The translations under genes and the position numbers were made by a program. A stretch of 64,000 bases of DNA from a virus (Duplodnaviria > Caudoviricetes). Position 1 is the stretch's first letter; every line of letters starts with the position of its first letter. Of the stretch, positions 1,912-63,443 are shown piece after piece. The stretch covers positions 297-64,296 of IMG/VR virus record IMGVR_UViG_3300042327_000405; one strand, written 5' to 3'. The notes beneath the pieces were generated by a model that was given only the letters and a program-made list of their open reading frames with translations, was not told the origin of the DNA and searched no databases.

Positions 1912-1912
1912 A

Positions 1913-2569: not shown

Positions 2570-2592
2570 ATATTTCTCCTTTGTTTGTTATA

Positions 2593-3806: not shown

Positions 3807-3818
3807 ACCATATTATAA

Positions 3819-5549: not shown

Positions 5550-5562
5550 TTTATACCCTTCG

Positions 5563-6685: not shown

Positions 6686-6692
6686 AATACAA

Positions 6693-7124
6693 TTATACCA
6701 GAGACTTAACTATAGATTCATAAATTTTGAGAGCAGGCTTTACTGTTGGATTTATAGATGCTAATTGTACTAATACTTTTACAGAAGTAGTCCCAGTTTT
6801 TAAAAATGAATAACTTGTGCCAGTTGCAATGCCTACATTTGAGTAGTCTCCACCATCAAATGAAGCAAAAACATCGTACTTTTCTTCTGCAGAAGTTTTA
6901 GATCCTTTGGACCAGTTTACAAGGATTGTATTACCAACAACATTAATGTCTCCTGGAAGGACTTGGACTATTTCAGAATTAACTGCAAATATTTGAGACC
7001 ATGCAGACTTCCTGTTTTTGTCTTCTGATACCAATCTAAATCTTGCAATTCTTCCATTTTCTGTAGTTACTTTACCAAGTAATTCTTTTTTTACAATAAT
7101 ATTTTTTATTCCCGAATCTGCCAT
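6693..7124 (-). CDS. Minor tail protein (FN3-like)
   Basis: Position in the tail operon; VNW...YDV...GTSYSF pattern. Confidence 0.55.
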   Translation of the reverse strand: MADSGIKNIIVKKELLGKVTTENGRIARFRLVSEDKNRKSAWSQIFAVNSEIVQVLPGDINVVGNTILVNWSKGSKTSAEEKYDVFASFDGGDYSNVGIATGTSYSFLKTGTTSVKVLVQLASINPTVKPALKIYESIVKSLV

Positions 7125-8503: not shown

Positions 8504-9072
8504 TAATTTCCTCCAGTATATATTGTATCACTAAAGGTTGCTCCACTTGTTAATACTTGAACCTCTGCCTGCTCGCCATCCTTTAAGTTAATTAAGTTAA
8601 TCACTAGATCTCCAGTTATGGGATCTACGTATATTGACTTACAGTTTGGAGTCTTTATCCACTTAGTTAGATCTTTTTCAACATACCCTGGATTATTTTC
8701 TGGTGGGGGTGGTGCTGATATGGTATAGCCTGTACCGCATTTTGGCAGGTGGTCTAAGATAGAAAGTGAAAGAGATTTAAAGTATGAATCTGATGACTGA
8801 AGACTTAGCATATTGTTTGGATTATACTGTAAATAAAGATCTGTTAGATTTTTTATTGGGCTATAGGAGATTGCTTGACCATTAACCAAATCATGCCTAG
8901 AAATTGTTGCAAGTTCTCGCCCACCAATATTTTCAAATATGAGATCTGTCATTATCTCAATAGACATAACCTCATCACCTTTAATAATTAAATCAGGTGT
9001 AGCAATTTTTATTGATTTATTGTCTGTTGTTGTTTTTGGATCTGGAAGATTTGGAGTTGCTGGTGTTGTCAT
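8503..9072 (-). CDS. Minor tail protein
   Basis: Coupled ORF in the tail operon. Confidence 0.6.
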   Translation of the reverse strand: MTTPATPNLPDPKTTTDNKSIKIATPDLIIKGDEVMSIEIMTDLIFENIGGRELATISRHDLVNGQAISYSPIKNLTDLYLQYNPNNMLSLQSSDSYFKSLSLSILDHLPKCGTGYTISAPPPPENNPGYVEKDLTKWIKTPNCKSIYVDPITGDLVINLINLKDGEQAEVQVLTSGATFSDTIYTGGN

Positions 9073-13460: not shown

Positions 13461-14095
13461 TATACCTCTTCCAAAGTAACTGAGACATTCCAGTAGTCAA
13501 AATTAGTTCCTCTTTTTTCTACAGAATAGGTAAAACTAGAAATAAACATCTCAACAATTTGGTTGTATTGAGAAAGGTGGTCATAAGGATCTTCTGTTCC
13601 TTTAAAAATATCTTTTCTGTCGTATGCAAGGAATACCCAAAAAGAACCTTTATGTGAGTCATACCATTCAAGCATATCTGCTCCACCAGCACCAGAGTCA
13701 GTTGTGTATGACTTTGATAAAGATTTTCCAGTGGTTGTATTAAAATTAGGATTGTGGTCATGTGATCGTGAAGGAATCATGCTCCAACTAGTGCTAAGTT
13801 TCATTTTATCTGCAGTATGATATGATCTCATACGGCCATTGATCATTCTCTCCCGTTTTTCAATACGCTCATCTGAAAAATCTAATGGAGATCTATTATC
13901 GTCTGTAAGCATTAAAAACTGATCTACAGTGTTTGGATTTGCATCTGTCAGATCTGCACCAACTTCTAATCCGTATGGGATGTACAAACCATTTATCAGG
14001 GTTCCAGAGTTTTCAGACCAAAGCATGCCACTAGGTCTATTATACTTTTTGCGACTCTGCATATAGGTAAATCTTGGGTCTGGACTATCTGGCAT
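13460..14095 (-). CDS. Distal-tail-like minor tail protein
   Basis: Immediately downstream of the tape measure; ends WNVSVTLEEV. Confidence 0.7.
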   Translation of the reverse strand: MPDSPDPRFTYMQSRKKYNRPSGMLWSENSGTLINGLYIPYGLEVGADLTDANPNTVDQFLMLTDDNRSPLDFSDERIEKRERMINGRMRSYHTADKMKLSTSWSMIPSRSHDHNPNFNTTTGKSLSKSYTTDSGAGGADMLEWYDSHKGSFWVFLAYDRKDIFKGTEDPYDHLSQYNQIVEMFISSFTYSVEKRGTNFDYWNVSVTLEEV

Positions 14096-17000
14096 TTATT
14101 CCAATCCCCCTAATTCTTCTATCTTCTACTTGCTTGATTGTTGACATTACTGCCTGTGCAATTTCATTTGGATTAGCATCTGTTCTTGCATTAACTGTTA
14201 ATGTATATGTATTATTATACACTGCTGCGCCAGTTGCATCACCATTATTAATCTTTTTGAGATTATCTACCCCGTAAGAATCCACAGCATACTTGCTCAT
14301 AATAAACTCTCCTGGGGTTAACATTGCTGGAACAATGTCTGTACCTCTAGCAAATCCTCCAGCAGCAAAATATTTTGGAACCATACCACCAGAAGACATA
14401 AGTCCGATTGCCTTAAGTTTGCTTAATACTCCTTGTGGGGTGGTCCTTGATGGCGGGACTACTGCTGGCTTAAAGGTTGGTGCATTATTTTGTCCATAGT
14501 TAAAGTTAGATGGCGTTGGTTTATTTACTGCAGGTGGTTTCGCTGCAGGTGGTTTCGCTGCAGGTGGTTTCGCTGCAGGTGGTTTCGCTGCAGGAACTTT
14601 TGCTACTGTTGCTGTTGCTACTGCTGGTTTTGTTTCTGAGGCTGGGGCACCAACAACTTCTGCAGGTGTTGGTGGAGTGTATGCAGATCCAAGGATTGGA
14701 TCATTTCCAACTGTTTGTTCAGCAGCAAAGGCTGCCTTTAAATCAGGAACAGTTGCAAGAGCAAGTTTCATTGACTCTATGAATTTGTTGCTATTTATCA
14801 TAGCAAGATCTACTTCATTCTTAATCTTTTCCCAAGCATCTCTTGTATTTCCAAGAACAGTAAGGCCTGCAATATCTTTGTCTAGTTGTATTTGTCTTAA
14901 ACGAACAAACTCTTGTGCTGGTTCAATTCTGTCTTCTTCAATTTGAAACACTTCATCTTGAAGAGTTTTAATTTCTTTTTCAAGTTCTTTTCTAGTTTTT
15001 GTTTTCCAGAGAGACTTGTCGGTACTGCCCATTTTGTCAACTCCAGTTACTCCATCTAATTCATATTGTCTGGACTGCTCTATAGCATCCTTTTGCTTTG
15101 TAACCGCATCGGCTGCCTGTTGTGCTCGCATGTCTTGCGCTGCTCGTGCTGCTGCAGCGATGTCTCCAGATGTTAATGCTTCTGCAAGTGTTAGTTGACC
15201 CCTTTGCTGATTAGAAATAGCAGCATTGGCTTTTTCTACTTCATCAAGAGCCTTAATTCTTTCGTCATATTTGTCATTAATCTTTTGCTCTTGGTCTTCA
15301 ATAGCCTTTAGTGCTGCTTCTTTGTCATCAACTTTATACTGAATTAATGCAATGTCTTCTTGTGCTTTTTTCATTACATCTTCTTGTGATTTTGTATCTA
15401 ATTTAAATTTAATATTAAGGGCTGTTTCTTGAACATCAAAAGCCTCCATTGCATTGCCAAACCCGTCATTAAACATATCTTGCATAAATTCAATAGTACC
15501 TTTTAACTGTTTAAGTCTTGTATCAAAATCAGTTATCAACTTGTTTAACTCAGCCTGTGCAGTCGCAATAACTTCTTTATCAGCACCTTTTTTAATTAAA
15601 CTATTAACTTTTGATTGCTGAGTGCCAATTTCAGTTTCCATCAGGCTTAAGTTTTCATCAGAATTAATTGCTCTTGCAGTTGAGGCACTATATTTCTTTC
15701 TAATTCTTGCCTCTTTAGTTCTATCTTTTTTGAATTGATCTATGTCTGTTCCTACTCCCTTAACCGCTGCTGATCTAAGTTGTGCCTTAGTTAAAACATT
15801 ATAATTCTTTGCTAAAGTAGCAACTGACTTTGAATTTTTTTCCATAGCAATTGCTTGAGCAAGTCCAGCGTTTTCAACCATTGCGTAAGCATCTGCAACT
15901 GGAACTCCTATAGAAGACAACTTGGCAAAGGCTATTGCTTGATCTTCAATCACGTTAGTTTCTGCTTCTGTCTTTGAATTAAAGTCTCCCATTGCTATAG
16001 AGTTTAACGCTTCTTGAATGTTTTTGGCATCCTTCTTTAAACCAATAATGTTATCCTTATTGTCAAACTCAAATAAAGACCTCTTCTTGCTTTCATACTC
16101 TTTTGGATCCATTCCAACTATAAGAGAAATGAGGTCTTCACTTCCACCTATCTTTCTTATATCATTCTCTATACCGCTGAAAGCATCAAGGGTCTTCTTG
16201 CCTCCAAACAGGCCATCTAAAGCCTTACGAGAGGCACTCCAGCCCTCTGTGACCTTAATCTGGTTCTTACGTACATCCCTTAGTTTTTTGACTAGATCAT
16301 CTAGGGGTGAGGACTGAACCTTACTTCCCCCGCCAGTTGGAGTTGTTCCTGTTGGAGCCTTTGTGTCTACAGCAACACCTTCAGTTACAGCCTTAAATCC
16401 TTGATCTTCTTTGTAGTGAGCAACTTGTGTTGCAATAGGAAGTGATGCATAATCTGCTCCACCATATGCTTTTCCTTGAATCATTGTAGTTGGAGATTTT
16501 TGCCAATCAATAAAGTCTTGAGTTGCTACTATCTCTGGATCTGGAATATTAATTATAGACGCAATAGTCTGTGTGTAAGTCTTTTGCTGATCTTCTGTTA
16601 GAGTATTAAAGTATGCTTCATCAAAAGCAGCAGTGCCCTCAATGTTTGGAATAATGTTATAGACAATTTCTGCAGTTAGGTCTTTGTTTCCTTCAATGCT
16701 GTCTAACATTGTGTTTAACTTTTCATATTGCTCTTTATTCTTTGGGTCTACATAGTAACTAACCAGAACATCAGATGGAATAACTGCGTTAAGGTTGTTT
16801 AACTTAATCATATTTTTTGTAAAATCAAGAGCATCTGAATCTTTTTCAAATGCTTCAACCTTTGTAACAAACTTGGTCTGTACTGTCTTATTAACTACGC
16901 CTTTAGAATCAAGAATGTTTTGGGCTGCAACACCAATTGACTCAGAAGTTGCACCGCTAAACTTAGTAATAATATTCATCATCTTTGGAGCAATATCTTT

Positions 17001-20000
17001 GTTGTCTGCTGCTAGACCTAAAAGACTTCTAAATACTGCTGGAGGTATATCTCCACTTGCCATCTTTGCCTGAATTAAAAATTCTTGTCCGCTGTCAATA
17101 AGGCCATCTTTTCTTAGGTTTGCTGCTTGCTGATCAACAACATCTATATATGCTAACTGATTAGGATCGTCTTTATATTTTGCAGTAACAGCCTTTTTCA
17201 TACCGCCCATCATTGCTTCTTGCATAGCGCCAGCGCCATTGTATTGTGTTACAACGTCTGCCTGTAGTTGTCCTTGTGCTGCTGTTAATTTATCTCTTTC
17301 ACCAATATACTTAGTTTGCATTTCTTCTGCTTCATTAATTTTGCCTTGAAGTTTTAGTTGATCAATTTTCTTTTGGTAGAACATATCAAATGAATCTAGC
17401 ATTTGTTTGTTTTGTTCCATGGCGATCTTGGAATCTACTGCATAGGCTGCTCCAAGTGCTCCTGCTTGTTTTGCAAATCTTTTTGTTGCAAAATATCCTC
17501 CAATTGCTCCTGCTGCTGCGCCGATGCCACCACCAATAATGGCACCAACAGCGGTACCCAGAATTGGAACTACGCTTCCTATGGCTGCCCCAAGTGCTGC
17601 TCCACCTAAAGCAGCGGCTCCAATTCCTGCTTTTTGAACAGTACTTTGTCCAGCAAGTTTTGTCATTGTTCCTGCGTTGTTTACATTTTTAGCACTTGCT
17701 TGCATTCTCTTACTATTTTCTGCAACCATATCAGTTCTTACCTTTAAAGGATTTTTTTCTAAGTCTTCTCCATTAGGTCCAAGCACTTTTTCCATTTGAG
17801 CAATTACTCTAATTCCCATAGACACATCTCCTGCTTGTCTTGCAGCATTCATTGCTAAACTTTTTGCTTGATTTATATCCATTGCGCCAGACATAACTGA
17901 AGTAGTTAACTGGCTTGACAAATCTCCAACTGCTTGCCCACCTTTTCCAGCAGCATTTTGTTCTGCAAGTCTTTTTGTTATTCCCTTGCCTTCTTCTGTT
18001 TGAACAAATGCTTCTCCATAAGTTGTTTTTCCAGTTGCTGAAGGGGTCATATTGAAAGAGTTTTTCCTCTTAAGATCCATCTGTTCTGACGCTGTTACTT
18101 TACCGCTGAACTTTGCTATAGCATTAACAGCAGAAGTAGATCCTCTAAATTTTTCATTTTCTTCTAAAACTTTATTTGCTGCTGCATCAAAGGCCATTCT
18201 TAAAGCAACAAATGATCCAACGGTTGCTGCCAAACCAACTGCAACTGCGCCCATAGGACTCTTTAACATTGGAAGAACCATAGAAAGACCCATCAAAGGC
18301 ATCATAACTTTTTGTGAAATTTCTCCAACCTTGCCTGGTGCCATAGAACCAACCATCGCTGCGCCTGCTGCAACTCCAAGTCCACCAGCCATACCCATTC
18401 CACCCTTGCCTGCTGCTCTTGCTTGCTGTCTTTTACTTATCATTGATCCAGCCTTTAGTTTGGCTTTATCAAGTCTTGTTGGAGTAAAGTTTCCACTTGG
18501 CAATAGAGGGCCTTGCATTGGTCCTGCAGGTTGGCTCTGGAAAATCTTTTTTTGATATCCTACAGAGTTGGCTAATTTAGTTCTTTTTTCTTCTTGACGA
18601 CGCAAAGACTTTGCATCTGCATCCATTGGTCCAGTGCCGTATAGTTTAGTTCTTGATGCTGTTATCTTTGCTTGTGTTCTTGCTTCTTCTCTTTGACGCT
18701 TTTCCATTTGACGGCGTACAGATTTAGCGTCAGCATCTATTGATCCCCCGCCATAAAGGGCAGTTCTAGATGCTGCTGCTGCAGATTGAGATAGCGTTGT
18801 TCCAATTGTACTTCCAACTGTCTTTGCTTCTGCTATAGAGGACTTTGCTCCAGCAACTACTGCTCCCGCTGGGTCTACAAGTCTTTTTACTCCTCTTGGA
18901 TAATTACGAGCAAGATCTTGTTCTGAAATATTAATATCTGGAGCATCTGCTTTTCCAACAATTCTTCCTTTAGGACCTTGACGAACTGCCTTGACTACGC
19001 TCTTTGGAGCAAGTCTACTATCATCTGTTTTACCAGAAGTTGATTTTAAGTTTACAGTATTTGGTTCTGTAGGTATTGGCTTTATATTGCCATTTTTATC
19101 TTGAAGTACTTCATCTGGTTTTACCAAGATTGAACGGTGGAAGTGATAAACTTTTTTCCAATCTGCTTCTAGGCCAGCCTGAAGTCTCTTATACATGTCC
19201 TCATAAACCTTTTTGGCTGGGTCTCCATCAGCAAGTTTAAAACCGTCTATAGTCTTTCTTAGTTTTGGAAGTGTTTTGTTGATCTCATCCTTTATTGTTT
19301 TTTCATATTGGTCTGCAGACTTAATTCCTTGAGGAATATCTGCTGTCGCATTTCCAAACCAGAATGGTGATGCATTTGCGTTTGCTCCTGGAACACCCTT
19401 CAAGTTGTGCATTGCAATTTCTTGCATAGATGGAAGCCCTGCGGAATAAGATCTTGTGCCAGATGCCTTATCAAATACACCAGCAGCGCCAACATCTGCT
19501 ATAACATTTCCTCCCAAGTTTCCTTTTTTAAGATCTTTGTCTGCACGAAGGCTTGACGCTACTAGTTGTCTAAAATAATCTCTTTCGGTAAATGTCTTTG
19601 GCATTGTATTTGGATCAAACCTTGGATCAAACTTAGATTCTAAAACAATAACTTTTCTCTTTTTATTAACATCTGGCTCATCAATATCTGTAGGGTCAAT
19701 CATTGTTGTGATTTTTTGTTTTGGCGCTACCAGTCCGTGAACATTTCTTGCAATCTCTGTTGCTCTTTTTTCTGCTATAGCATCTAACTCGCTTAGCATT
19801 GGTTTTACAAATACCTTTGAACCATCTGGCTTTGTGTATACTCCACCAATAGTAGACATAAAATTGCTTCTTCCAGAACTTTGTGTTTCCTGCTTACCAA
19901 AGTTTGTTGGTTTCTTTGCCCCATAGGTAGTTTGAGATGCTTCAATTGCAACTGCTCTTAATTTTTCTTTATGCTCCATTGCTTTTTCAAGATCAACTAA

Positions 20001-22967
20001 TTCTGGAGCCTTTAAAGGAACTGATATTTTTGTTTTATCTTTTGATTTTGCGCCTTGAGAAAACTTAGGAGTTGTTCCCGATCCAAGTCTATTCATGTTT
20101 ACAGTTGTTGGCTCTTTAATTTCAAACCCATCATAGATGCCTGGATTAAGTGTTACAGTTCCAGAGGATGTTACTGTTTTCCCTTGGCTTTCTGAAAACC
20201 TAGTCTTAATTTCATATCCTGCAATATAAGGTTTTCCAGTTGCTGGATTTATTGTTGATGCTGCTTTGTCAAGTATTGCCTTACTTGTTTCTGGAGTTGT
20301 TCCTAGTCCTTGCCCCATATTAAATCTAACATCTGCTGCATATAGTTGTCTAGACTTTATATATCCTGGATCATTTGGGCTTATTCTTTTTGGAAGTTCC
20401 TTTTCATATAAATGTTTCAGTAGGTCATCATTAACCATTTTTGAAGGAGATTCTCTAACTAACTTTAAAAGTTCTCTGTCTAGTGCTTCTGCTTGTACAG
20501 GAGACATTCCAGATGGATGCCATTTTGATGGACCATTTTTTAGCCATTCGTCTATAAATGCTTGTTTAGGAATTCCTTGTCCGTACATTTTTTTATTGAT
20601 CTCAAGAGGGAAATCAAACATCAATCCATGCTTTACGGTTGTTACTGCTGGCAAACCTTGTGACAAAAGAACCTGTTGCATTGTTATAAGTTTTAGTCTT
20701 TGATTCTCACTCATTTCTGGATGAGCCTTGAGTATGTCTGAAATTAATTTAGGTTCGCTTTTACCTCCTACGTGAGTTTCACTCATTGCAACAGGTTGAG
20801 CGTTTGTTGTACCTCCATTAAATCCTTGTACCGTTCCACCTGCAACCATATGAGCAATGAAAGGTCTATTCGCTGGATCTTGTGCAGCCTCTGCTGGAAT
20901 TACTGCTTCTCCAGGAGTAAGTACTGATGGAACAGTATCTTTATTTCCAGTTCCTGGAACTCTTGTTGTTCCAGTAGAATATTTAAGTTTAGGCATTCTT
21001 TTACCAGCAGGTGGGCCAGTAAATCCTGCCTGTGCTGCAATGGCTCTTCTATATGCATTTGCCAACATGTTAACTGCTGTGGTTTCAGATGTAAAGGTTT
21101 GCTTAAGTTTAGTGTGAACTTGATCAAGAGATGCTGCTACTGCTGAGGCTTCTAGTTGTTCTTTAGTTAAATAGTTTGTTTGCTCGCCTAAAACTTTACT
21201 AGCGTTTCCTGTTCTGTTGTACATAGACTTCATCCCTGCAAACATTTTAATTATGTTAGCAACAGCGTTTGCAATCAGACCAAATGTCATAAGTAGAACT
21301 GGACCTATTCCTGCAACTGCAACAGTAAAGATTGTTAAGAATTTTTTACTACCGTCTCCTAGACCATTAAATTTTTCAAGAATCTTTCCAACAAACTCAA
21401 CAATAGGTGTTAGTGCTTTTAAGAACTGTTCTCCAACTGGAGCAATAGCCAACTTAAGATCTTCCATTGACTTTTTAAATTTATAAGTTGTTGTATTTTG
21501 AATCTTATCTAATTCTCGCTGTGACAAGATTGCAAGTTCTTCTGTGGTTGCTTGTGTTAGTTGAAGAACTCTGTTTGCTTGCGTACCCTGGGCTACTACG
21601 TTTTGAAATAATGTAGAAAGTCTTGAGAACTGAAACTTACCAAACAGTTGCTCAATAGCACGAGCACGGTTAAGGGGATCAAGAGTGTCTAGTGCCTGTG
21701 CAAATCCAACAACAGTTGCTTTGATGTCACCCTTATTGGACTCAACAATTCCTCGAATGTTTACACCAAGGTCTCCAAGAAATGCACTGGCTTTTGCAGA
21801 AGGATTAATTAATGAAGCAAGACCAGACTTAAGTGCGTTAGCGCCTTCTGATGCATTGATTCCACCTTCTTTCATTGCTGTAAGGAAGAATGCTAAATCT
21901 TCTACATCTCCACCAAGTTGTTGAATAACTGGTCCAGCCTTTGGAATTGCTATGGTCAAGTCTTCAATTGATACAACGGTCTGGTTTTCAACTGCGTTAA
22001 GGAAGTCAATCTTTTTAGCAAGATCTTCTGTTGCTACTCCAAATGCATTAGTTACTGATATTGTTGTTTCTAATGCTTGTTCTTGTTCTACTCCACCAAG
22101 AACAGCAAGTCTTGTTGCTTGTGCAACTTGAGCCATAAGGGCTGCGCCCTGTTTACCCATTGCTGCTGCATCTGCAGCCATTTTCATTGTATCTTCTATT
22201 GCAACGCCGTACTTAGTATATTCTTTTGCAAGACTTTGAATCTGCTTAATCATTGCATCGGTTTCTTCTGTAGATGTAAACATTTCTCCGTATACACGCT
22301 TAAATCTAATTGCCTGCTCTTCAAGTTTCATGAATGTCTTAGAAGCAGTTACTCCAAGCATTGTCAGTGGAACTGTAAAACCAACCATCAACTGGCGACC
22401 TGCCCACTGAGTATTCTTACCAAAATTTAGAAGGTTGGTTGATCCTTGTTTTAATAATTGATTGAGTAGTTGCTGTCTTTGTGCAGCAATGGCAGTTTGT
22501 GTGCCAAGATTTTTCATGTCAAGAGTTAGAGGTCTTACTGCAATTGACTGTAGGGCTCCGTTGGCCCCTCGACCCATCTTAATATATTGGGTCTGTAGAT
22601 CCTTTACACGCTCTCGTGCAACTTTATTTAATGTGTCAAACTCAGATCTAAATAGTCTACCAAAAGTTTTTGTTGCAGCGCCAGTGTATCTAAAGTATTC
22701 TCTTGAGGTTAACTTATTTCTTTCTAAGGCATCAGTAAAAGACTCTGTACTCGATGTTACTGTTCGCATTGATGCTTGGAATTGTCCAGTAGCATTTATG
22801 CTGTTCATCAAGTTTTGTGCTTGATTTGCTGCCACTGCTGATGCTGCAGTGCCAGACTTTGCCATCTGTGTATGGAAGGCTGATATTTGACGTTGTAGAA
22901 GTTTTAGACTTGCTAAAGCATCGGACGTATCAATATTTACATGAATATTGGATTCTACATCAGCCAT
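14085..22967 (-). CDS. Tape measure protein (2960 aa) with inserted domains
   Basis: Very long, Ala-rich helical protein with a TP901-type N-terminal region, hydrophobic segments and coiled coils; follows the tail chaperones. Confidence 0.95.
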   Translation of the reverse strand: MADVESNIHVNIDTSDALASLKLLQRQISAFHTQMAKSGTAASAVAANQAQNLMNSINATGQFQASMRTVTSSTESFTDALERNKLTSREYFRYTGAATKTFGRLFRSEFDTLNKVARERVKDLQTQYIKMGRGANGALQSIAVRPLTLDMKNLGTQTAIAAQRQQLLNQLLKQGSTNLLNFGKNTQWAGRQLMVGFTVPLTMLGVTASKTFMKLEEQAIRFKRVYGEMFTSTEETDAMIKQIQSLAKEYTKYGVAIEDTMKMAADAAAMGKQGAALMAQVAQATRLAVLGGVEQEQALETTISVTNAFGVATEDLAKKIDFLNAVENQTVVSIEDLTIAIPKAGPVIQQLGGDVEDLAFFLTAMKEGGINASEGANALKSGLASLINPSAKASAFLGDLGVNIRGIVESNKGDIKATVVGFAQALDTLDPLNRARAIEQLFGKFQFSRLSTLFQNVVAQGTQANRVLQLTQATTEELAILSQRELDKIQNTTTYKFKKSMEDLKLAIAPVGEQFLKALTPIVEFVGKILEKFNGLGDGSKKFLTIFTVAVAGIGPVLLMTFGLIANAVANIIKMFAGMKSMYNRTGNASKVLGEQTNYLTKEQLEASAVAASLDQVHTKLKQTFTSETTAVNMLANAYRRAIAAQAGFTGPPAGKRMPKLKYSTGTTRVPGTGNKDTVPSVLTPGEAVIPAEAAQDPANRPFIAHMVAGGTVQGFNGGTTNAQPVAMSETHVGGKSEPKLISDILKAHPEMSENQRLKLITMQQVLLSQGLPAVTTVKHGLMFDFPLEINKKMYGQGIPKQAFIDEWLKNGPSKWHPSGMSPVQAEALDRELLKLVRESPSKMVNDDLLKHLYEKELPKRISPNDPGYIKSRQLYAADVRFNMGQGLGTTPETSKAILDKAASTINPATGKPYIAGYEIKTRFSESQGKTVTSSGTVTLNPGIYDGFEIKEPTTVNMNRLGSGTTPKFSQGAKSKDKTKISVPLKAPELVDLEKAMEHKEKLRAVAIEASQTTYGAKKPTNFGKQETQSSGRSNFMSTIGGVYTKPDGSKVFVKPMLSELDAIAEKRATEIARNVHGLVAPKQKITTMIDPTDIDEPDVNKKRKVIVLESKFDPRFDPNTMPKTFTERDYFRQLVASSLRADKDLKKGNLGGNVIADVGAAGVFDKASGTRSYSAGLPSMQEIAMHNLKGVPGANANASPFWFGNATADIPQGIKSADQYEKTIKDEINKTLPKLRKTIDGFKLADGDPAKKVYEDMYKRLQAGLEADWKKVYHFHRSILVKPDEVLQDKNGNIKPIPTEPNTVNLKSTSGKTDDSRLAPKSVVKAVRQGPKGRIVGKADAPDINISEQDLARNYPRGVKRLVDPAGAVVAGAKSSIAEAKTVGSTIGTTLSQSAAAASRTALYGGGSIDADAKSVRRQMEKRQREEARTQAKITASRTKLYGTGPMDADAKSLRRQEEKRTKLANSVGYQKKIFQSQPAGPMQGPLLPSGNFTPTRLDKAKLKAGSMISKRQQARAAGKGGMGMAGGLGVAAGAAMVGSMAPGKVGEISQKVMMPLMGLSMVLPMLKSPMGAVAVGLAATVGSFVALRMAFDAAANKVLEENEKFRGSTSAVNAIAKFSGKVTASEQMDLKRKNSFNMTPSATGKTTYGEAFVQTEEGKGITKRLAEQNAAGKGGQAVGDLSSQLTTSVMSGAMDINQAKSLAMNAARQAGDVSMGIRVIAQMEKVLGPNGEDLEKNPLKVRTDMVAENSKRMQASAKNVNNAGTMTKLAGQSTVQKAGIGAAALGGAALGAAIGSVVPILGTAVGAIIGGGIGAAAGAIGGYFATKRFAKQAGALGAAYAVDSKIAMEQNKQMLDSFDMFYQKKIDQLKLQGKINEAEEMQTKYIGERDKLTAAQGQLQADVVTQYNGAGAMQEAMMGGMKKAVTAKYKDDPNQLAYIDVVDQQAANLRKDGLIDSGQEFLIQAKMASGDIPPAVFRSLLGLAADNKDIAPKMMNIITKFSGATSESIGVAAQNILDSKGVVNKTVQTKFVTKVEAFEKDSDALDFTKNMIKLNNLNAVIPSDVLVSYYVDPKNKEQYEKLNTMLDSIEGNKDLTAEIVYNIIPNIEGTAAFDEAYFNTLTEDQQKTYTQTIASIINIPDPEIVATQDFIDWQKSPTTMIQGKAYGGADYASLPIATQVAHYKEDQGFKAVTEGVAVDTKAPTGTTPTGGGSKVQSSPLDDLVKKLRDVRKNQIKVTEGWSASRKALDGLFGGKKTLDAFSGIENDIRKIGGSEDLISLIVGMDPKEYESKKRSLFEFDNKDNIIGLKKDAKNIQEALNSIAMGDFNSKTEAETNVIEDQAIAFAKLSSIGVPVADAYAMVENAGLAQAIAMEKNSKSVATLAKNYNVLTKAQLRSAAVKGVGTDIDQFKKDRTKEARIRKKYSASTARAINSDENLSLMETEIGTQQSKVNSLIKKGADKEVIATAQAELNKLITDFDTRLKQLKGTIEFMQDMFNDGFGNAMEAFDVQETALNIKFKLDTKSQEDVMKKAQEDIALIQYKVDDKEAALKAIEDQEQKINDKYDERIKALDEVEKANAAISNQQRGQLTLAEALTSGDIAAAARAAQDMRAQQAADAVTKQKDAIEQSRQYELDGVTGVDKMGSTDKSLWKTKTRKELEKEIKTLQDEVFQIEEDRIEPAQEFVRLRQIQLDKDIAGLTVLGNTRDAWEKIKNEVDLAMINSNKFIESMKLALATVPDLKAAFAAEQTVGNDPILGSAYTPPTPAEVVGAPASETKPAVATATVAKVPAAKPPAAKPPAAKPPAAKPPAVNKPTPSNFNYGQNNAPTFKPAVVPPSRTTPQGVLSKLKAIGLMSSGGMVPKYFAAGGFARGTDIVPAMLTPGEFIMSKYAVDSYGVDNLKKINNGDATGAAVYNNTYTLTVNARTDANPNEIAQAVMSTIKQVEDRRIRGIGINAR
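14528..14594. repeat. Perfect 15-nt tandem repeat (about 4.5 copies) encoding KPPAA in the tape measure C-terminus
   Basis: ctgcaggtggtttcg x4 plus a partial copy. Confidence 0.9.
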
Positions 22968-57816: not shown

Positions 57817-58977
57817 TTATTTATTTTTAACATATATTATTATGTCATCTTTAGGCCTATAGGTTAAAGCGCCTATATAAGACACTTCATCATTCAGCAA
57901 ATCTGTGTCAAACTTCTTAGCAATTTTAGTCAAGATTAACTCTATTTCCATTAAAACAAATTCTTTTGCGATGCACTGTCTTTTACCAAACAAAAATGGA
58001 AAGTATTCTCCTTTTTCTAACTCTTTGTTTTTAAGCCATCTTTCAGGATTGAATATATCTGGATCTTCAAAAATATTTTTATCTTTATGCATAGCCAAAG
58101 AACTTACTATTACTTTAGTTCCAGCAGTCAAATCTGTTCCATCTACACTTACATCTTCGGTGGCCATTCTTTCAGTATTCCAAACAGGCGGACACATTCT
58201 TAGAACTTCATTAATAAAAGCATCAACACCTTCCTCTCTGGATATTTTATTTTGCCATTTTTTATTTATAGATAGATAATATATTGCCCACTCTAATAAG
58301 TATGCAGTTGATTCATAACCAGAAAATATTATTGTAACCGAGTGATCATATAAATCATTAATGTCCATTTTGTTATTGCTATATGAGTTAATTAGAATAT
58401 CTAAAAGATCATTTTTATTTTCTTTAGACTCTAGCCTTTCATCTACTATTCTTTTTACAAATTCTTTTAATTCTTTTGTTAGTATGACTAGTTCTTGATC
58501 ACTTATATTGGAAAGAACTTTGTCTGACGCTATAGACATATTATCTCTTATTTTTATAAAATCATTATCTACATTTGTTGAAAAAAATACTTCCATGTTA
58601 ATTTTAAAAACTAAGAACTGCATTTCTTTTCTGACATTAACTTCGTCAGACCAAGACTGCAAAGAAAAATCTATAATGTCAGACACTTTATCTTTATATT
58701 CTTTTATTTTATCGCTACTAAATGCTGAAAAAATTTCTTTTTTGTCATTCATGTGTTTAGGTTCTTCTGTAGTAAATAGGCCTTCTCCTAAAACACACTT
58801 TAGCCTTTTCCAGACCCCGCCTTTTACAAAACTTTTATATTTATTTAGAAGAACATCTTCTACCGCTTTACTAGTAAACGCAAAAAACACATTTTCTAAT
58901 TTTGTACTTGACAAATAGTTAGATTTTGTTTTATTTTTTAAAATAGTGATAGCGGAGACTTGGTCTTTGTTTAGCAT
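57817..58977 (-). CDS. Cytochrome P450
   Basis: SGYEST (I helix), EVLR, PERW, FLFGKRQCIA heme-Cys motif; 386 aa from the leaderless ATG. Confidence 0.93.
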   Translation of the reverse strand: MLNKDQVSAITILKNKTKSNYLSSTKLENVFFAFTSKAVEDVLLNKYKSFVKGGVWKRLKCVLGEGLFTTEEPKHMNDKKEIFSAFSSDKIKEYKDKVSDIIDFSLQSWSDEVNVRKEMQFLVFKINMEVFFSTNVDNDFIKIRDNMSIASDKVLSNISDQELVILTKELKEFVKRIVDERLESKENKNDLLDILINSYSNNKMDINDLYDHSVTIIFSGYESTAYLLEWAIYYLSINKKWQNKISREEGVDAFINEVLRMCPPVWNTERMATEDVSVDGTDLTAGTKVIVSSLAMHKDKNIFEDPDIFNPERWLKNKELEKGEYFPFLFGKRQCIAKEFVLMEIELILTKIAKKFDTDLLNDEVSYIGALTYRPKDDIIIYVKNK

Positions 58978-58999
58978 AATTTTATTATACACTAAGGAG

Positions 59000-60160
59000 T
59001 TATTTATTTTTTACGTATATAGATATTGGGTCTTTGGGTCTGTAGGACATTCCACCAACATATGACACTTGGTCATTTATCAGTTCCAGGTCAAATTTCT
59101 TAGCAATTTTTGTTAAGACTATACGCATCTCCATAAGAGCAAATTCTTTTCCTATGCATTGCCTTTTCCCAAACAAGAATGGAAAATACTCTCCCTTTGA
59201 TAGTTGTTTATTGTCAAACCATCTTTCTGGTTTAAATGTATCTGGATCTTCAAATACATTTTTGTCTCTTTGTACGGCCAAAGAACTTAATACTACCTGT
59301 GTGCCAGCAGGAATTTCTTTTCCATCTATAATTACGTCTTCTGTTGCTATTCTCTCGCTATTCCAGATAGGAGGACACATTCTCAATACCTCGTTAATAA
59401 AAGCATCTGTATTTTCTCCTTTAGATATTGTTTCTTGCCAGTCTTTGTTGATCGATAAATAATATACCGCCCATTCTAGCGCATACGCAGTTGTCTCATA
59501 ACTACCTAGCAAAATAGTAAGTGATTCGTCATATAGGTCATCAATTTCCATTTTATTATTGTTGTAAGAGTTAACCAAAATACCTAAAAAGTCATTCTTA
59601 ATTTCTTTAGATGCTAGTCTTTTATCTACTACCTTTTTAATTATATCTTTTAATTCTTTTGTTAACCTATCTAATTCTTCATCTTGTACATCTTGAGCAA
59701 TTTTGTCTGATACTATGTATACGTTTTTTTGTATTCTCGAAAACTCATCATCTATGTTTTCTGAAAAAAATATTTCCATTACGCTCTTAAAAATAATAAG
59801 TCGCATTTCATTTCTAACGTCAACCTTGTCAAACCAGTTAGATAGGACATCATCTACTACCAATACAATCTTATTTTCGTATTCGTTTATATGATCATTG
59901 TTGAATGCTGTATAAATTTCTTTCTTTTTCTCCATATGACGTGGTTCTTCTCCAGTAAACAGTCCATCGCCAAGGACAGATCTTAGTCTTTTAAATCCCC
60001 CGCTTTTTGTAAAACTACTATATTTATTTAGGGCAACATCTTCTACTGCCTTATCAGTAAATGCAAAGAATATGTTTTCAGAGTTAAACTTAATTAGGGG
60101 ATTTCCTGTTGTTACTTTTTTAAAAAACATATATAGAGAAGGCAAGTCTGGAGGTAGCAT
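59000..60160 (-). CDS. Cytochrome P450, tandem paralog
   Basis: GSYETT, EVLR, PERW, FLFGKRQCIG; 386 aa from an ATG 6 nt after TATACT. Confidence 0.93.
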   Translation of the reverse strand: MLPPDLPSLYMFFKKVTTGNPLIKFNSENIFFAFTDKAVEDVALNKYSSFTKSGGFKRLRSVLGDGLFTGEEPRHMEKKKEIYTAFNNDHINEYENKIVLVVDDVLSNWFDKVDVRNEMRLIIFKSVMEIFFSENIDDEFSRIQKNVYIVSDKIAQDVQDEELDRLTKELKDIIKKVVDKRLASKEIKNDFLGILVNSYNNNKMEIDDLYDESLTILLGSYETTAYALEWAVYYLSINKDWQETISKGENTDAFINEVLRMCPPIWNSERIATEDVIIDGKEIPAGTQVVLSSLAVQRDKNVFEDPDTFKPERWFDNKQLSKGEYFPFLFGKRQCIGKEFALMEMRIVLTKIAKKFDLELINDQVSYVGGMSYRPKDPISIYVKNK

Positions 60161-60308
60161 AGGTTTAGTATACAGCATAGGCAAAAACCCAAATAGCCTA
60201 AAATCTGAATATTTTGTCTACATGTATGATACACAATATACAGAAAATAAACACAAAAAAATAGTGCGCCCATAATAGACACACTATCGATCTTGAATAT
60301 AATACGCA

Positions 60309-60494: not shown

Positions 60495-60707
60495 TTATTT
60501 TACCCCCATAACTAGCGACATATATCGCTTAGCAATTACAACCGCTTTAGGGTTGAGAGTGCTATTGAAGCGACCCTGTGAGAAATCACTAGGGTATTTG
60601 TTAGCAATACGCTGTGCTATGCGTATAGGCATAACTGGCGCTGTATTGTTGATAGATAATGCTGAAGAACCAAACTCTTCTGCTATTTCGTTATATATAG
60701 TGTTCAT
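60495..60707 (-). CDS. Small early protein
   Basis: SD AAAGAAAGG; first gene of the leftward unit. Confidence 0.7.
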   Translation of the reverse strand: MNTIYNEIAEEFGSSALSINNTAPVMPIRIAQRIANKYPSDFSQGRFNSTLNPKAVVIAKRYMSLVMGVK

Positions 60708-60758
60708 ATTGATGAACCTTTCTTTTATTCGATAACCTTGTGTTATCTTTTTCCTTGA

Positions 60759-60791
60759 CCTAGGTTATTTGCTCTTTCGAGGCTCACTAGG
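60759..60791 (-). ncRNA. Structured leader motif (UGAGC/CAAAUAA internal loop, GAAA tetraloop)
   Basis: CCTAG-TGAGC-CTC-GAAA-GAG-CAAATAAC-CTAGG. Confidence 0.6.
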
Positions 60792-60825
60792 ATTTTTCTT
60801 ACTATTCAATTTTTCTTATACTAGA

Positions 60826-60854
60826 AGTATAGCATAGAAATGTCAAAAAGTCAA
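60826..60854 (-). promoter_or_regulatory. Sigma-A type promoter
   Basis: TTGACT-N17-TATACT with extended TG; near-identical to 63074-63102. Confidence 0.8.
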
Positions 60855-60972
60855 GTCTAAACACGGCGTGTCGCATGTGATTTAGACCACACTGATCGAA
60901 CGTCGCGTTTGTCAAGTCGACACACCGATAATAATAGAATTGTTACGCTATTGTTATAATTCCCCTGGAAAA

Positions 60973-60988
60973 TGTGACCCTTATCACA
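60973..60988. promoter_or_regulatory. CRP/GlxR-type site
   Basis: TGTGA-ccctta-TCACA; related sites at 60876, 62119, 62161, 63027 and 63160. Confidence 0.55.
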
Positions 60989-61023
60989 AAAATAGTTTTC
61001 TCTACTGGTCAGTAACCCCCCCT

Positions 61024-61048
61024 AAATGTCAGACCCCCCTGCTATAAT
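61024..61048 (+). promoter_or_regulatory. Early promoter, TGTCAG-N10-TATAAT
   Basis: 25-nt repeat AAATGTCAGACCCC(C/T)CTGCTA(T/G)A(A/C)T, three copies. Confidence 0.8.
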
Positions 61049-61094
61049 TATCATATAAAGAAAAACAAGCGGTAAAGAAATCCGCTAAAGAAAG

Positions 61095-61277
61095 GTGGTC
61101 AAAATGACTACACTAAATGAAACCCTATTCTCTACTATCGTTCATGAATACCATAACGGCGGAGTAAAATCCTCTTATGGTCTTGACGCATACACTAGAA
61201 AAGAATTGCTAAAGTTTTTATTCTCTAGCAAGGCTTGCTACTGTATAAACTGTATAGATAAGGAGAATACTAAATGA
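61095..61277 (+). CDS. Small early protein (CxCxxC)
   Basis: SD AAAGAAAGG; the start is probably ATG 61104. Confidence 0.7.
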   Translation: MVKMTTLNETLFSTIVHEYHNGGVKSSYGLDAYTRKELLKFLFSSKACYCINCIDKENTK

Positions 61278-61441
61278 GTATTTGGACTAAGTTCGCTACT
61301 GTAAGCGACTACCCTAGAGGCATGATGAACTTATGCCCTTGCGGTCAAGTGGTATTAGCACCCGCTATGTATCACGAAGGTTTCCCTTGGTGGGAAAACC
61401 CTAACAAATGTAAAGAATTATTCGAAGGAGTAAATAAATGA
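61274..61441 (+). CDS. Micro-ORF, 55 aa (MSIWTKF...CPCG)
   Basis: SD AAGGAG; ATGA coupling. Confidence 0.65.
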   Translation: MSIWTKFATVSDYPRGMMNLCPCGQVVLAPAMYHEGFPWWENPNKCKELFEGVNK

Positions 61442-61560
61442 AATTAGATGAATATAAGCAAATGGTAGAGGCTCAACGCCTTGCCTCATTGGGTCTTGCC
61501 CTAGAAGCCCTAATGAAATCAAAAGCAATACAAGAACAAATGAAAGAAGGAAATAAATGA
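61438..61560 (+). CDS. Micro-ORF, 40 aa (MKLDEYKQ...)
   Basis: SD AAGGAG; ATGA overlap. Confidence 0.6.
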   Translation: MKLDEYKQMVEAQRLASLGLALEALMKSKAIQEQMKEGNK

Positions 61561-61721
61561 GCACTATGCTACGCCTTGACTCTGTATGTGGAAAGACACA
61601 TACCTTCGCTGATGTCTATGACATAAACCTAAACCCTCACGGCTCTATCTGTTGCGATAACTGTGAGTCAATTCTAATCTGCCGTAAGGCTTGGGATTTT
61701 CTATATAAAGGAGTAAAATAA
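61557..61721 (+). CDS. Micro-ORF, 54 aa, Cys-rich (CCDNC)
   Basis: SD GAAGGA; ATGA overlap. Confidence 0.6.
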   Translation: MSTMLRLDSVCGKTHTFADVYDINLNPHGSICCDNCESILICRKAWDFLYKGVK

Positions 61722-61871
61722 ATGACTAAATACAATGTGCTAATTTCGTATGTATGCGAATCAGATAGCGAAATGGAAGCGGTATTCGCTCTAAACAAAT
61801 CGCTATACCCACTTAGCGAAAACGAATTAGAAAAGTTCAATGCTTTTCATGTAGAGGTGGTGCCACAATGA
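61722..61871 (+). CDS. Micro-ORF, 49 aa (MTKYNVL...)
   Basis: SD AAGGAG. Confidence 0.6.
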   Translation: MTKYNVLISYVCESDSEMEAVFALNKSLYPLSENELEKFNAFHVEVVPQ

Positions 61872-61957
61872 AAACACTTCAAGAAAAGTTAGATGAAAGC
61901 GCAAAAGCGTTAGAGCCAATACTTTGGGAACTACTAGATGAAATTGAGGAAAACTAA
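61868..61957 (+). CDS. Micro-ORF, 29 aa, acidic
   Basis: SD GAGGTG; ATGA overlap. Confidence 0.5.
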   Translation: MKTLQEKLDESAKALEPILWELLDEIEEN

Positions 61958-61958
61958 A

Positions 61959-62060
61959 ATGGAAAAAGATTTATTTGGATTTGCTAACGCAATTAATTTG
62001 GATCATCTAAACTTAAAACAACTAAAAGAGTTAGAAAAGATTTTAGAAAAAATAAAATAA
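61959..62060 (+). CDS. Micro-ORF, 33 aa
   Basis: SD GAGGA; last gene before a hairpin. Confidence 0.5.
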   Translation: MEKDLFGFANAINLDHLNLKQLKELEKILEKIK

Positions 62061-62070
62061 ATAAAAACAA

Positions 62071-62099
62071 AATTGCAGAAATAAAACTCTGCAAATTTT
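62071..62099 (+). terminator. Probable terminator of the first early operon
   Basis: TTGCAGA...TCTGCAA followed by ATTTT. Confidence 0.5.
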
Positions 62100-62111
62100 G
62101 CACGTGCAAAG

Positions 62112-62162
62112 TTATCCACATGATGCACATCACACCTACGATTTACGCTCAAGTTATCCACA
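62112..62162 (+). promoter_or_regulatory. Two DnaA boxes inside a 17-bp direct repeat
   Basis: TTATCCACA at 62112 and 62154 (AAGTTATCCACATGATG x2). Confidence 0.65.
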
Positions 62163-62212
62163 TGATGTAAGTCACATTTCAAAATGTCCGATTTGACCGA
62201 TTACTGGTCAGT

Positions 62213-62237
62213 AAATGTCAGACCCCCCTGCTATACT
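62213..62237 (+). promoter_or_regulatory. Early promoter, TGTCAG-N10-TATACT
   Basis: Second copy of the 25-nt repeat. Confidence 0.8.
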
Positions 62238-62290
62238 TACTAGTATAAAGATTGAACAATAAGTAAATCTCTTAAAGAAAGGAAGTCCCA

Positions 62291-62476
62291 ATGACTTCAC
62301 TAAACACAATAGTATGCGATACGCATACACCTCAAATGTCCGCTATCTCAACAGTCTGTAATATGGCTTTTGATGAGCAATTCACATTCTGCACAGAGTG
62401 TGAACAGAATATAGAAAGATGGGCTGATATTGATAACCCATTTTCACCTTGGTCTAAGTGGAAGGTGTCTAACTAA
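62291..62476 (+). CDS. Small early protein (CxxC)
   Basis: SD AAAGGAAG. Confidence 0.7.
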   Translation: MTSLNTIVCDTHTPQMSAISTVCNMAFDEQFTFCTECEQNIERWADIDNPFSPWSKWKVSN

Positions 62477-62661
62477 TGAGTACCCCTACACTTATTCTTT
62501 CACATATGCCTTTAACAAATGTTTTCTTGCGTGGCACAAAACAATTCTTGTGTTGCGAAGAAATGCAAACTGCAATTTATTGCGATGCACACTTTGAATT
62601 TCAAGGTTGCCAGTATTGCGATTTTGACCTATCTGCCTCAGAATGTGAGTGTGAGAACTAA
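62476..62661 (+). CDS. Small Cys-rich early protein
   Basis: TAATG coupling. Confidence 0.65.
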   Translation: MSTPTLILSHMPLTNVFLRGTKQFLCCEEMQTAIYCDAHFEFQGCQYCDFDLSASECECEN

Positions 62662-62774
62662 TGCAAAAAGAAATGATAACTTTATCTTGTCAGATTTGCG
62701 AAGAGCCTACTGTTGAAGTAGATATTGCAGATGCAAAATTACTAACGGCTACATGCCAAGAATGTTGGGGGTAA
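62661..62774 (+). CDS. Micro-ORF, 37 aa (CQIC...CQEC)
   Basis: TAATG coupling; zinc-ribbon pattern. Confidence 0.6.
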   Translation: MQKEMITLSCQICEEPTVEVDIADAKLLTATCQECWG

Positions 62775-62777
62775 CTC

Positions 62778-62882
62778 ATGAATTACTATGACGATTACTA
62801 TGAAAATCCAGAGCCAGTATATGCTGGGTGTTATTGCAAATTAAATTACCTATGTTCAGAATGCAAAAGGAGTTATAACTAG
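62778..62882 (+). CDS. Micro-ORF, 34 aa (CYC...CSEC)
   Basis: GGGGG SD-like element; continues the operon. Confidence 0.5.
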   Translation: MNYYDDYYENPEPVYAGCYCKLNYLCSECKRSYN

Positions 62883-62986
62883 TGAATAATTTTTATCAAA
62901 CTTTTTTCGTAAGTGGTAATGCACTATTTTGGTTTTCTTTTATTTCTTTTTTTCTTGGATCTTATTTATTCGTGAAAGGCGAATAA
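62882..62986 (+). CDS. Micro-ORF, 34 aa, single-TM membrane peptide
   Basis: GTG start, SD AAGGAG; ALFWFSFISFFLGSYLFV. Confidence 0.55.
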   Translation: MNNFYQTFFVSGNALFWFSFISFFLGSYLFVKGE

Positions 62987-63001
62987 TTTTCGACGTCCCG
63001 T

Positions 63002-63022
63002 TTATCCACAGGCTGTGTATAA
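63002..63022. promoter_or_regulatory. Inverted DnaA box pair
   Basis: TTATCCACA-ggc-TGTGTATAA. Confidence 0.65.
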
Positions 63023-63073
63023 CTAATGTGATAATAAACACACTATTATTCCCCCGATTTACGGCGTGTCGAT

Positions 63074-63102
63074 TTGACTTTTTGACATTTTTATGTTACA
63101 CT
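63074..63102 (+). promoter_or_regulatory. Sigma-A type promoter
   Basis: TTGACT-N17-TACACT. Confidence 0.75.
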
Positions 63103-63127
63103 TACAGAGTAAGAAAAACTAAATAAG

Positions 63128-63207
63128 GACAAATTGGCTAATGAGCCTAAGCAAATAAATGTGACCAGTATCACAGTGAGCCTTAGCAAATAAGTAGCCA
63201 AAATGTC
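63128..63207 (+). ncRNA. Structured RNA hairpin with two opposed UGAGC/CAAAUAA internal loops
   Basis: TTGGCTA/TAGCCAA, CTAAG/CTTAG and TGTGA/TCACA stems separated by the repeated loops. Confidence 0.65.
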
Positions 63208-63225
63208 AGACCCCTCTGCTAGAAT
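63201..63225 (+). promoter_or_regulatory. Early promoter, TGTCAG-N10-TAGAAT
   Basis: Third copy of the 25-nt repeat. Confidence 0.75.
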
Positions 63226-63257
63226 AGTAATATAAACAAACGAAAGGAAGTCAAAAT

Positions 63258-63443
63258 ATGACTTACACTATAACACTAGAAACCTTCAATGGTTCAACAA
63301 AAAAAATTGCTCTGCCTTCTCGTGGCGCAGTTGCTCAATTCCTCTCAACTTACCCAAATCAACTACCTGTTGGCGTATCGGTAAAGGTTGCTTGCGACGC
63401 TTTAGGCGTTAGCGGAACACTAAGAGGAAAGGCGGTTCTGTAA
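63258..63443 (+). CDS. 61-aa early protein, paralog of 60309-60494
   Basis: SD AAAGGAAG; manual alignment. Confidence 0.75.
   Translation: MTYTITLETFNGSTKKIALPSRGAVAQFLSTYPNQLPVGVSVKVACDALGVSGTLRGKAVL

Follow-up and report, generated by a model that had tools for sequence, protein, structure and literature searches.

An uncatalogued structured-RNA module with a conserved asymmetric internal loop behind early promoters of uncultured phages

A 64,000-nucleotide (nt) stretch of DNA from an uncultured phage (Duplodnaviria; Caudoviricetes) was analysed. This stretch, called the window below, corresponds to positions 297 to 64,296 of IMG/VR record IMGVR_UViG_3300042327_000405. The record is 64,296 nt long and 59% complete according to CheckV, and the window covers nearly all of it. 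The element studied is a structured-RNA module in which the strands UGAGC and CAAAUAA face each other as an asymmetric internal loop between an outer helix (P1) and a second helix (P2). Up to about 60700, nearly all large genes of the window are encoded on the minus strand; from 61095 on, many small open reading frames (ORFs) follow on the plus strand. The module loci were therefore placed within a divergent early control region.

Three copies of the module were read directly from the sequence, at 63142-63158 (+), 63177-63193 (+) and 60765-60786 (-). The two plus-strand copies form one twofold hairpin (63128-63207, +), for which 21 homologues were aligned; it is composed of a base helix GACA/UGUC, P1, two opposed modules and an apical stem-loop. 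The 5' strand of the outer P1, UUGGCUA (63134-63140, +), pairs with its 3' strand, UAGCCAA (63195-63201, +). The outer module follows, with a short strand (63141-63146, +) made of spacer A (63141) and UGAGC (63142-63146) and a long strand (63187-63194, +) made of CAAAUAA (63187-63193) and spacer G (63194). The central helix serves as P2 of both modules and pairs CUAAG (63147-63151, +) with CUUAG (63182-63186, +). The inner module has its long strand at 63152-63159 (+), with CAAAUAA at 63152-63158 and spacer A at 63159, and its short strand at 63176-63181 (+), with spacer G at 63176 and UGAGC at 63177-63181. The apical stem-loop TGTGA-N6-TCACA (63160-63175, +; stem 63160-63164/63171-63175, loop 63165-63170) is the P1 of the inner module in the RNA. 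The third copy is a single module (60759-60791, -) consisting of P1 CCUAG/CUAGG, UGAGC, P2 CUC-GAAA-GAG, CAAAUAA and a spacer C. The single module has 5 + 3 base pairs (bp), and the twofold hairpin has about 21, broken by two large loops.

Each locus lies about 35 nt downstream of an early promoter found by a consensus scan. The twofold-hairpin transcript is headed by TTGACT-17-TACACT (63074-63102, +) and the leftward operon by TTGACT-17-TATACT (60826-60854, -), both with a TG extension. The modules start about 25-35 nt past the inferred transcription starts.

The pattern TGAGC-N3-30-CAAATAA matched three times in the window, with 0.54 matches expected, and one of 100 shuffled sequences reached three. 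The minimum free energy (MFE) of the 80-nt stretch 63128-63207 was -19.1 kcal/mol, with a z score of -3.09, and none of 200 shuffles was equally stable. The single copy at 60759-60791 was unremarkable by energy (z -0.58; 55 of 200 shuffles equally stable); its MFE structure was a different fold, and the module fold appeared in the centroid structure only. Scored without filters across the entire window, a covariance model recovered only these two loci, with 53.2 bits (60759-60791, E 4e-11) and 21 bits. The next best match had 15.1 bits and an E value of 0.27.

An earlier note on this DNA, made from the sequence alone, had listed the three copies and their coordinates, and these were exact. It had also drawn one long hairpin with two opposed loops, and the 80-nt stretch folded exactly in this way. 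The near-identical promoters that it placed in front of both loci were both found. Its fold of the single copy held in part, since the centroid contains the module while the MFE structure differs and the energy is unexceptional.

Relatives were collected from IMG/VR by two pattern scans. The first, TGAGCCT-N1-25-AGCAAATAA, gave at least 119 loci. Family membership was defined by a promoter and leader in front and a hairpin context, and applied to 60 of the 119 listed loci; the other 59 were isolated single matches, chiefly within coding sequence. The second scan specified the inner core CAAATAA-N-TGTGA-N6-TCACA-N-TGAGC of the window's hairpin type and nothing else, so that the outer loop strands and the two other helices could vary. 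It gave at least 120 loci or contigs, and 118 inner-core loci were reduced to 94 distinct 90-nt contexts, which form the less biased sample. The module was present in more than 120 related uncultured IMG/VR phage contigs, with one to three module loci per genome. The related sequences are not independent of each other, so the shuffle tests and the Fisher test below overstate significance. The public runs listed with the module region numbered 24, all of them lake-water or freshwater DNA metagenomes, and none of the runs listed was an RNA run. No DNA-level match between the window and cultured phages was found in nucleotide searches of a phage collection. The portal protein is 45-47% identical to portal proteins of large Streptomyces siphophages.

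The loop strands were constant in all architectures, with the consensus UGAGC for the short strand and C(A/G)AAUAA for the long strand. The outer short strand, which is unconstrained by the inner-core pattern, was UGAGC in 94/94 contexts; for the outer long strand, 50 contexts had CAAAUAA and 44 had CGAAUAA. All 94 showed complete pairing of the central helix, for which five different sequences were seen. An outer P1 of 3 bp or more was present in 92, and 19 different P1 sequences were seen. A structure-aware scan of 61 family sources gave 110 distinct exact contexts, compared with none in reversed-sequence controls. One-mismatch loop variants with good helices were rare (CGAAUAA 6, CGAGC 1, CAAGUAA 1-2, CAAUUAA 1), and the one-mismatch control gave 15 matches. 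The parsed family list contained 118 modules in 61 distinct contexts, and manual counting gave about 40 distinct helices for P1 and 15 for P2. P1 and P2 varied in sequence, length and even topology, with pairing retained.

The first search pattern had required P2 to begin with CU...AG, and the covariance-model search then lifted this constraint. It found members with P2 CCUAC/GUAGG and CCUAUA/UAUAGG and with central helices CUAC/GUAG and CUAU/AUAG. The first pair of P2 was C-G, G-C or A-U. Since this closing pair is free, conservation resides in the loop strands themselves.

Covariation was investigated in three groups. Among 17 aligned single modules, 90.3% of cells were paired, compared with 69.9% in shuffled alignments and 20-47% in slid controls. 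Eight of the ten pairs were changed on both sides, and covariation was 0.467 against 0.177, with none of 500 shuffles as high. Among 21 sequences of the window's hairpin type, the central helix had AU 10 / UA 8 / GC 3 at its middle pair, and the three loop-adjacent P1 pairs covaried, for example GC 12 / CG 9 and UA 8 / CG 6 / GC 2 / UG 2. In a third hairpin class (11 sequences), pair 4 of the central helix was CG 5 / GC 4 / UA 2 and the apical helix had the pairs CG 5 / UA 3 / AU 2 / GC 1 and CG 8 / UA 2 / GC 1, with pairing retained throughout.

The module was found in three architectures. The first is a single capped module, with P2 such as CUC-GAAA-GAG, CUUA-GAAA-UAAG, CUCUA-GCAA-UAGAG, CUUAUC-AAAUAA-GAUAAG or CCUAC-UAA-GUAGG. 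The second is the twofold hairpin, in which two opposed modules have a common central helix of 4 or 5 bp and the apex is UGUGA...UCACA, CC-GAAA-GG or one of many other stems. The third is a nested stack of two or three modules in the same orientation, 3 to 8 bp apart. Module count differs at orthologous positions: a triple stack precedes the homologue of the window's 70-amino-acid (aa) protein in relatives L004, L082 and L120, versus a single module in the window. GNRA tetraloops are frequent at module apices, and the apical loops vary (GAAA, GCAA, AAAUAA, CCAGUA and others).

In the twofold hairpins, one spacer nucleotide stands between each loop strand and P1, and the two spacers were (A,G) or (G,A) in 89 of the 94 contexts. 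Stricter parsing of 78 contexts gave 47 (A,G), 26 (G,A), 2 (A,A) and 1 (G,G), with a Fisher value of 6e-17 uncorrected for relatedness. Both spacer states were found on several central-helix backgrounds, and all 11 hairpins of the third class obeyed the rule. CCUAG-type single modules have a lone C or U on the long strand in place of the purine spacers. A plausible non-canonical scheme for the loop would pair R-R', U1-A7, G2-A6, A3-U5 and G4-A4, with C1A2A3 bulged against C5. Some centroid folds pair G4 with C1 instead.

The reading of invariant loops and covarying stems in the earlier note was borne out by the family, with UGAGC and C(A/G)AAUAA each in 94/94 contexts and the covariation of the single modules equalled by none of 500 shuffles. 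The covariance-model search of relatives that it had suggested recovered members in which the loops are retained and P2 changes. Its idea that the twofold version would suit a dimeric ligand was weakened, because relatives show single and same-orientation nested copies and the apex is an invariant palindrome.

The position behind promoters was also conserved. Among 78 distinct upstream regions, which include chance matches of the search expression, an extended -10 element (TGnTAnnnT) ended 23-45 nt before the first UGAGC in 61, and an A-rich linear leader box, AAUUAAAUAA, preceded the hairpin in 57. A further conserved word, ACGGCGTGTCG or its reverse complement, was observed just upstream of TTGACT promoters, at 63060-63072 and 60857-60875 in the window and in many relatives. 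A second promoter-like box, TGTCAG-CCCC...TGCTAGAAT (63204-63225, +), lies directly 3' of the twofold hairpin and overlaps its base. This 22-nt box (TGTCAG-N-CCCC-N2-TG-N-TA-N3-T) occurs in three exact copies, at 61027-61048, 62216-62237 and 63204-63225 (+), before clusters of small ORFs. In some relatives the TGTCAG box, not TTGACT, precedes the module. It may represent a second promoter class dependent on a phage factor.

The apical TGTGA/TCACA stem was invariant in 21/21 hairpins of the window's type, and its loop varied. With at most one mismatch, TGTGA-N6-TCACA occurs four times in the window (60876-60891, 60973-60988, 63027-63042 and 63160-63175), always in the early control region and each time centred about 64.5 or 74.5 bp upstream of a start inferred from a -10 box. 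We take this palindrome to be of the CRP-type consensus. All four sites may be operators for a regulator encoded by the host or the phage, and the hairpin apex is probably also a DNA operator. Because the apex is invariant and is one of four palindromes in register, the twofold symmetry may partly derive from an operator for the promoter at 63204-63225. A TACTGGTCA word present in the apical loop and twice elsewhere in the window was rejected as a candidate signal, being unconserved in relatives. Three perfect TTATCCACA words were also observed in the region, at 62112-62120, 62154-62162 and 63002-63010 (+), with 0.76 expected. This word presumably corresponds to the DnaA-box consensus, and the cluster may mark an origin or a DnaA-controlled region.

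The single module is followed by a second hairpin of the 5' untranslated region, GAUAAC-ACAAG-GUUAUC (60731-60747, -), located between the module and the ribosome-binding site. Its stem is changed yet still paired in relatives (GUUAGC/GCUAAC, GAUUAG/CUAAUC and GGUUAG/CUAACC). The operon then contains the genes of the 70-aa protein P0001 (60495-60707, -) and the 61-aa protein P0002 (60309-60494, -). It is closed after the 61-aa gene by an intrinsic terminator-like hairpin of 13 pairs with a U-tract (60260-60288, -). The first gene behind the twofold hairpin encodes the 61-aa protein P0003 (63258-63443, +). P0002 and P0003 are paralogous (30% identity, E 1e-08), and one stands in each divergent early operon. 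Close relatives keep this gene order, with the twofold hairpin before P0003 homologues (61 aa) and the CCUAG-type module before P0001 homologues (70 aa). The operon terminator is kept with compensatory stem changes in L026 (2212-2238) and L122 (5770-5800). A complete relative of 108 kb has a triple stack followed by five small ORFs and then a strong terminator.

The Atlas neighbours of the 61-aa proteins were viral hypothetical-protein clusters of 66, 65 and 708 members. A profile search with the 70-aa family gave 31 representatives. This family also forms the C-terminal part of proteins of 150-208 aa (P0012, P0013, P0015, P0023, P0026 and P0032), for whose N-terminal parts no Pfam family was found.

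Other features of the neighbourhood were recorded. The ribosome-binding site and the start codon of the 70-aa gene are enclosed in a hairpin, GUUCAU/AUGAAC (60700-60725, -); in relatives, changes in its stem accompany changes in the first codons. The early operon terminator is directly followed downstream by two tandem cytochrome P450 genes (57817-58992 and 59000-60184, -; Pfam PF00067, E 1.6e-47 and 1.8e-52). The minus strand carries an ORF of 2960 aa (14085-22967, -) and further ORFs of 1462 aa and 1248 aa; a PHROG search with the 1248-aa ORF gave no match.

The distance from the module to the next ribosome-binding site ranged from 10 to more than 60 nt without conserved sequestration, which argues against simple translation occlusion. 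Pairing of UGAGCCU in the window with the ribosome-binding region of the 70-aa gene was rejected as a switch, being unconserved in relatives.

The module was compared with known RNAs. Rfam 15 gave no match at gathering thresholds in the whole window. At E values up to 10 it gave five weak matches in 60600-63400, none overlapping the module, and in eight related loci it gave only two tRNAs. The novelty claimed in the earlier note thus held against the Rfam check that it had named. A literature search on the loop words, on UAA/GAN internal loops and on asymmetric internal loops in phage leaders, which did not extend to supplementary motif lists, found no description. Recurrent internal loops include the kink-turn, UAA/GAN and loop E. 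Like these, the present loop is asymmetric and purine-rich, with UAA on one strand, GAG on the other, possible G-A pairs and a 3-nt bulge. A kink-turn has a three-nucleotide bulge followed by tandem sheared G-A/A-G pairs, with a GA step on both strands. The short strand of the module has GA, whereas in most copies the long strand has no GA step before P1 and has U where G is required. ToxI of type III toxin-antitoxin systems consists of fixed-unit tandem direct repeats beside the gene of an endoribonuclease toxin; as to the repeats, the module copies are nested or inverted in one hairpin with variable helices.

Two similar asymmetric internal loops in quasi-twofold arrangement are also present in the RAT hairpin and in the U1A autoregulatory element, where two copies of a small protein (for RAT, the CAT-domain dimer of the BglG/LicT antiterminators) bind and regulate the downstream gene. 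This likeness is one of general form, with no sequence likeness established, and the module differs in occurring also singly and nested. No CAT or RRM domain was found in eight neighbouring small proteins (Pfam, E up to 0.1), and no hairpin overlapped a U-tract terminator, so the module was not assigned to the RAT class. We regard the element as a genuine, uncatalogued structured-RNA module. It is a motif family of a known general kind, the cis-acting leader RNAs of phages, with an unusual modular architecture.

The element most likely acts as RNA on the promoter strand. The conserved position behind promoters and the frequent GNRA apices favour this. Wobble pairs appear on this strand at helix positions that are otherwise Watson-Crick, with UG 6 / CG 4 in the third class and GU 4 and UG 4 in the window's type. 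Between TGAGC and CAAATAA lie 4 to more than 40 nt, a variation compatible with an RNA fold and not with a double-stranded DNA site. As for function, we see about an even chance that the module is recognised by a trans-acting factor, probably a protein, to control the short early operons. The module would be transcribed within the 5' leader of early phage mRNAs, and one loop would recruit one copy of the factor, most likely a small RNA-binding protein of phage or host origin, on the nascent leader. The number of copies, one to three, could tune occupancy. RNA polymerase might then read through the conserved operon terminators, as with lambda nut and N, or the fate of the early mRNA might be controlled. 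The conserved terminators behind the modules were counted in favour of this explanation.

The lambda nut site consists of boxA, a linear element, and boxB, whose apical loop is bound by the arginine-rich N protein. In common with nut/N, the module would be a cis RNA signal behind early promoters, with a linear leader box, a hairpin, small genes and a terminator. It differs in that nut conserves the apical loop of boxB, whereas the module conserves an internal loop, its apical loops vary and its copies stack. No N-like protein family was found among the neighbouring small proteins by Pfam or PHROG, and the module was not assigned to the nut class. We regard lambda nut/N and HK022 put as the closest functional analogies to a factor site on a nascent leader.

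Several observations weigh against a factor site on the sense RNA. Terminators are expected at the ends of short operons anyway and are by themselves no sign of antitermination. No binding partner was identified among the neighbouring small proteins: the proteins beside the modules matched no Pfam (eight proteins, E up to 0.1) or PHROG family, and the ESM Atlas gave no informative neighbour. More distant relatives do not retain these small proteins downstream of the module. Of seven related hairpins, four were no more stable than shuffles (z +0.37 to -0.43); with stability this marginal, folding probably depends on non-canonical contacts in the loop or on a bound factor. The first four pairs of the outer P1 in the window's type contained 25 A-C mismatches versus 8 G-U pairs, and A-C mismatches were common at pairs 4 and 5. 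An A-C mismatch on one strand is a G-U wobble on the other. The antisense strand was the more stable in 77/84, 35/49 and 29/40 hairpins of three sets, by a mean of 3.8, 1.0 and 1.6 kcal/mol. Shuffles of the same A-rich composition (A = 0.40) showed an antisense bias of 2.1 and 1.6 kcal/mol for the first two sets, and because they lean the same way, the energies do not decide the strand.

Rather than depending on a dedicated phage protein, the module could be a self-sufficient RNA 'brick' of a new class with a defined non-canonical fold. It would dock on host RNA polymerase and so reprogram early transcription, or titrate a host defence or RNA-decay factor, its dose set by stacking one to three copies in a hairpin. 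We consider this possible but rather unlikely.

It is unlikely that the module is an endoribonuclease site, where early mRNAs would be processed or stabilised through recognition or cleavage by a nuclease of the phage or an RNase III-like enzyme of the host. The sites of T7 and SP82 likewise are conserved internal-loop hairpins in leaders and between early genes of lytic phages, and SP82 early mRNA has such sites for the host RNase III (work cited in PMC4838370). According to PMC1540722, internal loops in RNase III substrates restrict cutting to one strand and leave protective hairpins. The roughly 21 bp of the twofold hairpin in total were counted in favour of this reading. PMC1540722 gives about two helical turns for RNase III substrates, and the single modules, with 5 + 3 bp, are far too short for this bacterial substrate. 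Covariance model R1 found no match in the SPO1 terminal redundancy (positions 1-14000, filters off; best 8.5 bits, E 3.2), a comparison that concerns SPO1 and not the mapped SP82 sites.

Quite unlikely, in our view, is a factor-independent RNA that binds the transcribing RNA polymerase like HK022 put and suppresses pausing or termination in cis. As described in PMC9378689, put is an RNA of about 70 nt whose two stem-loops form a V and which acts without a protein on the beta' zinc-binding domain. The module resembles it, by the same text, as a promoter-proximal structured RNA of early phage transcripts with bulges and non-canonical pairs, and it lies just behind early promoters, as putL does (PMC9378689). 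Conserved terminators lie downstream of it, and invariant loop nucleotides would be expected if the partner were a conserved host enzyme. However, put has one fixed architecture of two stem-loops with a triplex, whereas here a 12-nt loop occurs in one to three copies and in either orientation, and a 33-nt module stands alone; the two are set apart on the basis of the description in PMC9378689. In addition, one module (L015:1860-1915) is intergenic and far from a recognisable promoter.

We hold it very unlikely that the element works otherwise than as sense RNA, be it as DNA (a single-stranded hairpin or a cruciform, such as might form at a replication origin) or as a transcript of the opposite strand. 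The DnaA-box consensus words nearby, the DNA-type apical palindrome, which never covaries, the excess of A-C mismatches in the outer P1 and the greater stability of the antisense fold speak for it, and d(GAAA) loops also stabilise DNA mini-hairpins. The constant distance behind sense-strand promoters, the replacement of C-G by U-G on the sense strand, the largely compositional origin of the energy bias and the restriction to one to three loci per genome, always in leaders, speak against it.

The chance is slightly smaller again that the module is an abundant decoy RNA, titrating a host RNA-binding factor such as a defence nuclease or CRISPR effector early in infection. Strong early promoters, several copies per hairpin and invariant loops would suit a decoy. 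The loop also loosely resembles the repeat:anti-repeat bulge of Cas9 guides (GAGC...GCAA...AAUAA). However, P1, the stem that would have to be mimicked, is unconserved, and no cellular counterpart was found. A search of a genome collection gave 120 scattered single matches in many phyla, of which 6/120 passed a lax helix test, compared with 4/60 unrelated viral matches, and these were therefore taken as chance.

A small-ligand or ion aptamer, acting as a tandem riboswitch-like sensor, is highly improbable: about 12 invariant loop nucleotides between variable helices and tandem copies would fit one, but there is no conserved expression platform, terminator overlap, conserved sequestration of the ribosome-binding site or Rfam match, and nested and inverted copies are unusual for riboswitches.

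To our knowledge, the early host-takeover regions of phages other than the coliphage models have yielded few conserved RNA signals. The motif described here is widespread in lake-water phage contigs, and its core of about 12 nt is almost invariant. Its modular use as a single copy, an inverted pair or a nested stack is unusual and provides an easy experimental handle. If the partner were a small phage protein, the two would form a compact RNA-protein pair usable as a tool. If it were RNA polymerase or a host defence factor, the module would represent a new mechanism of phage early gene control.

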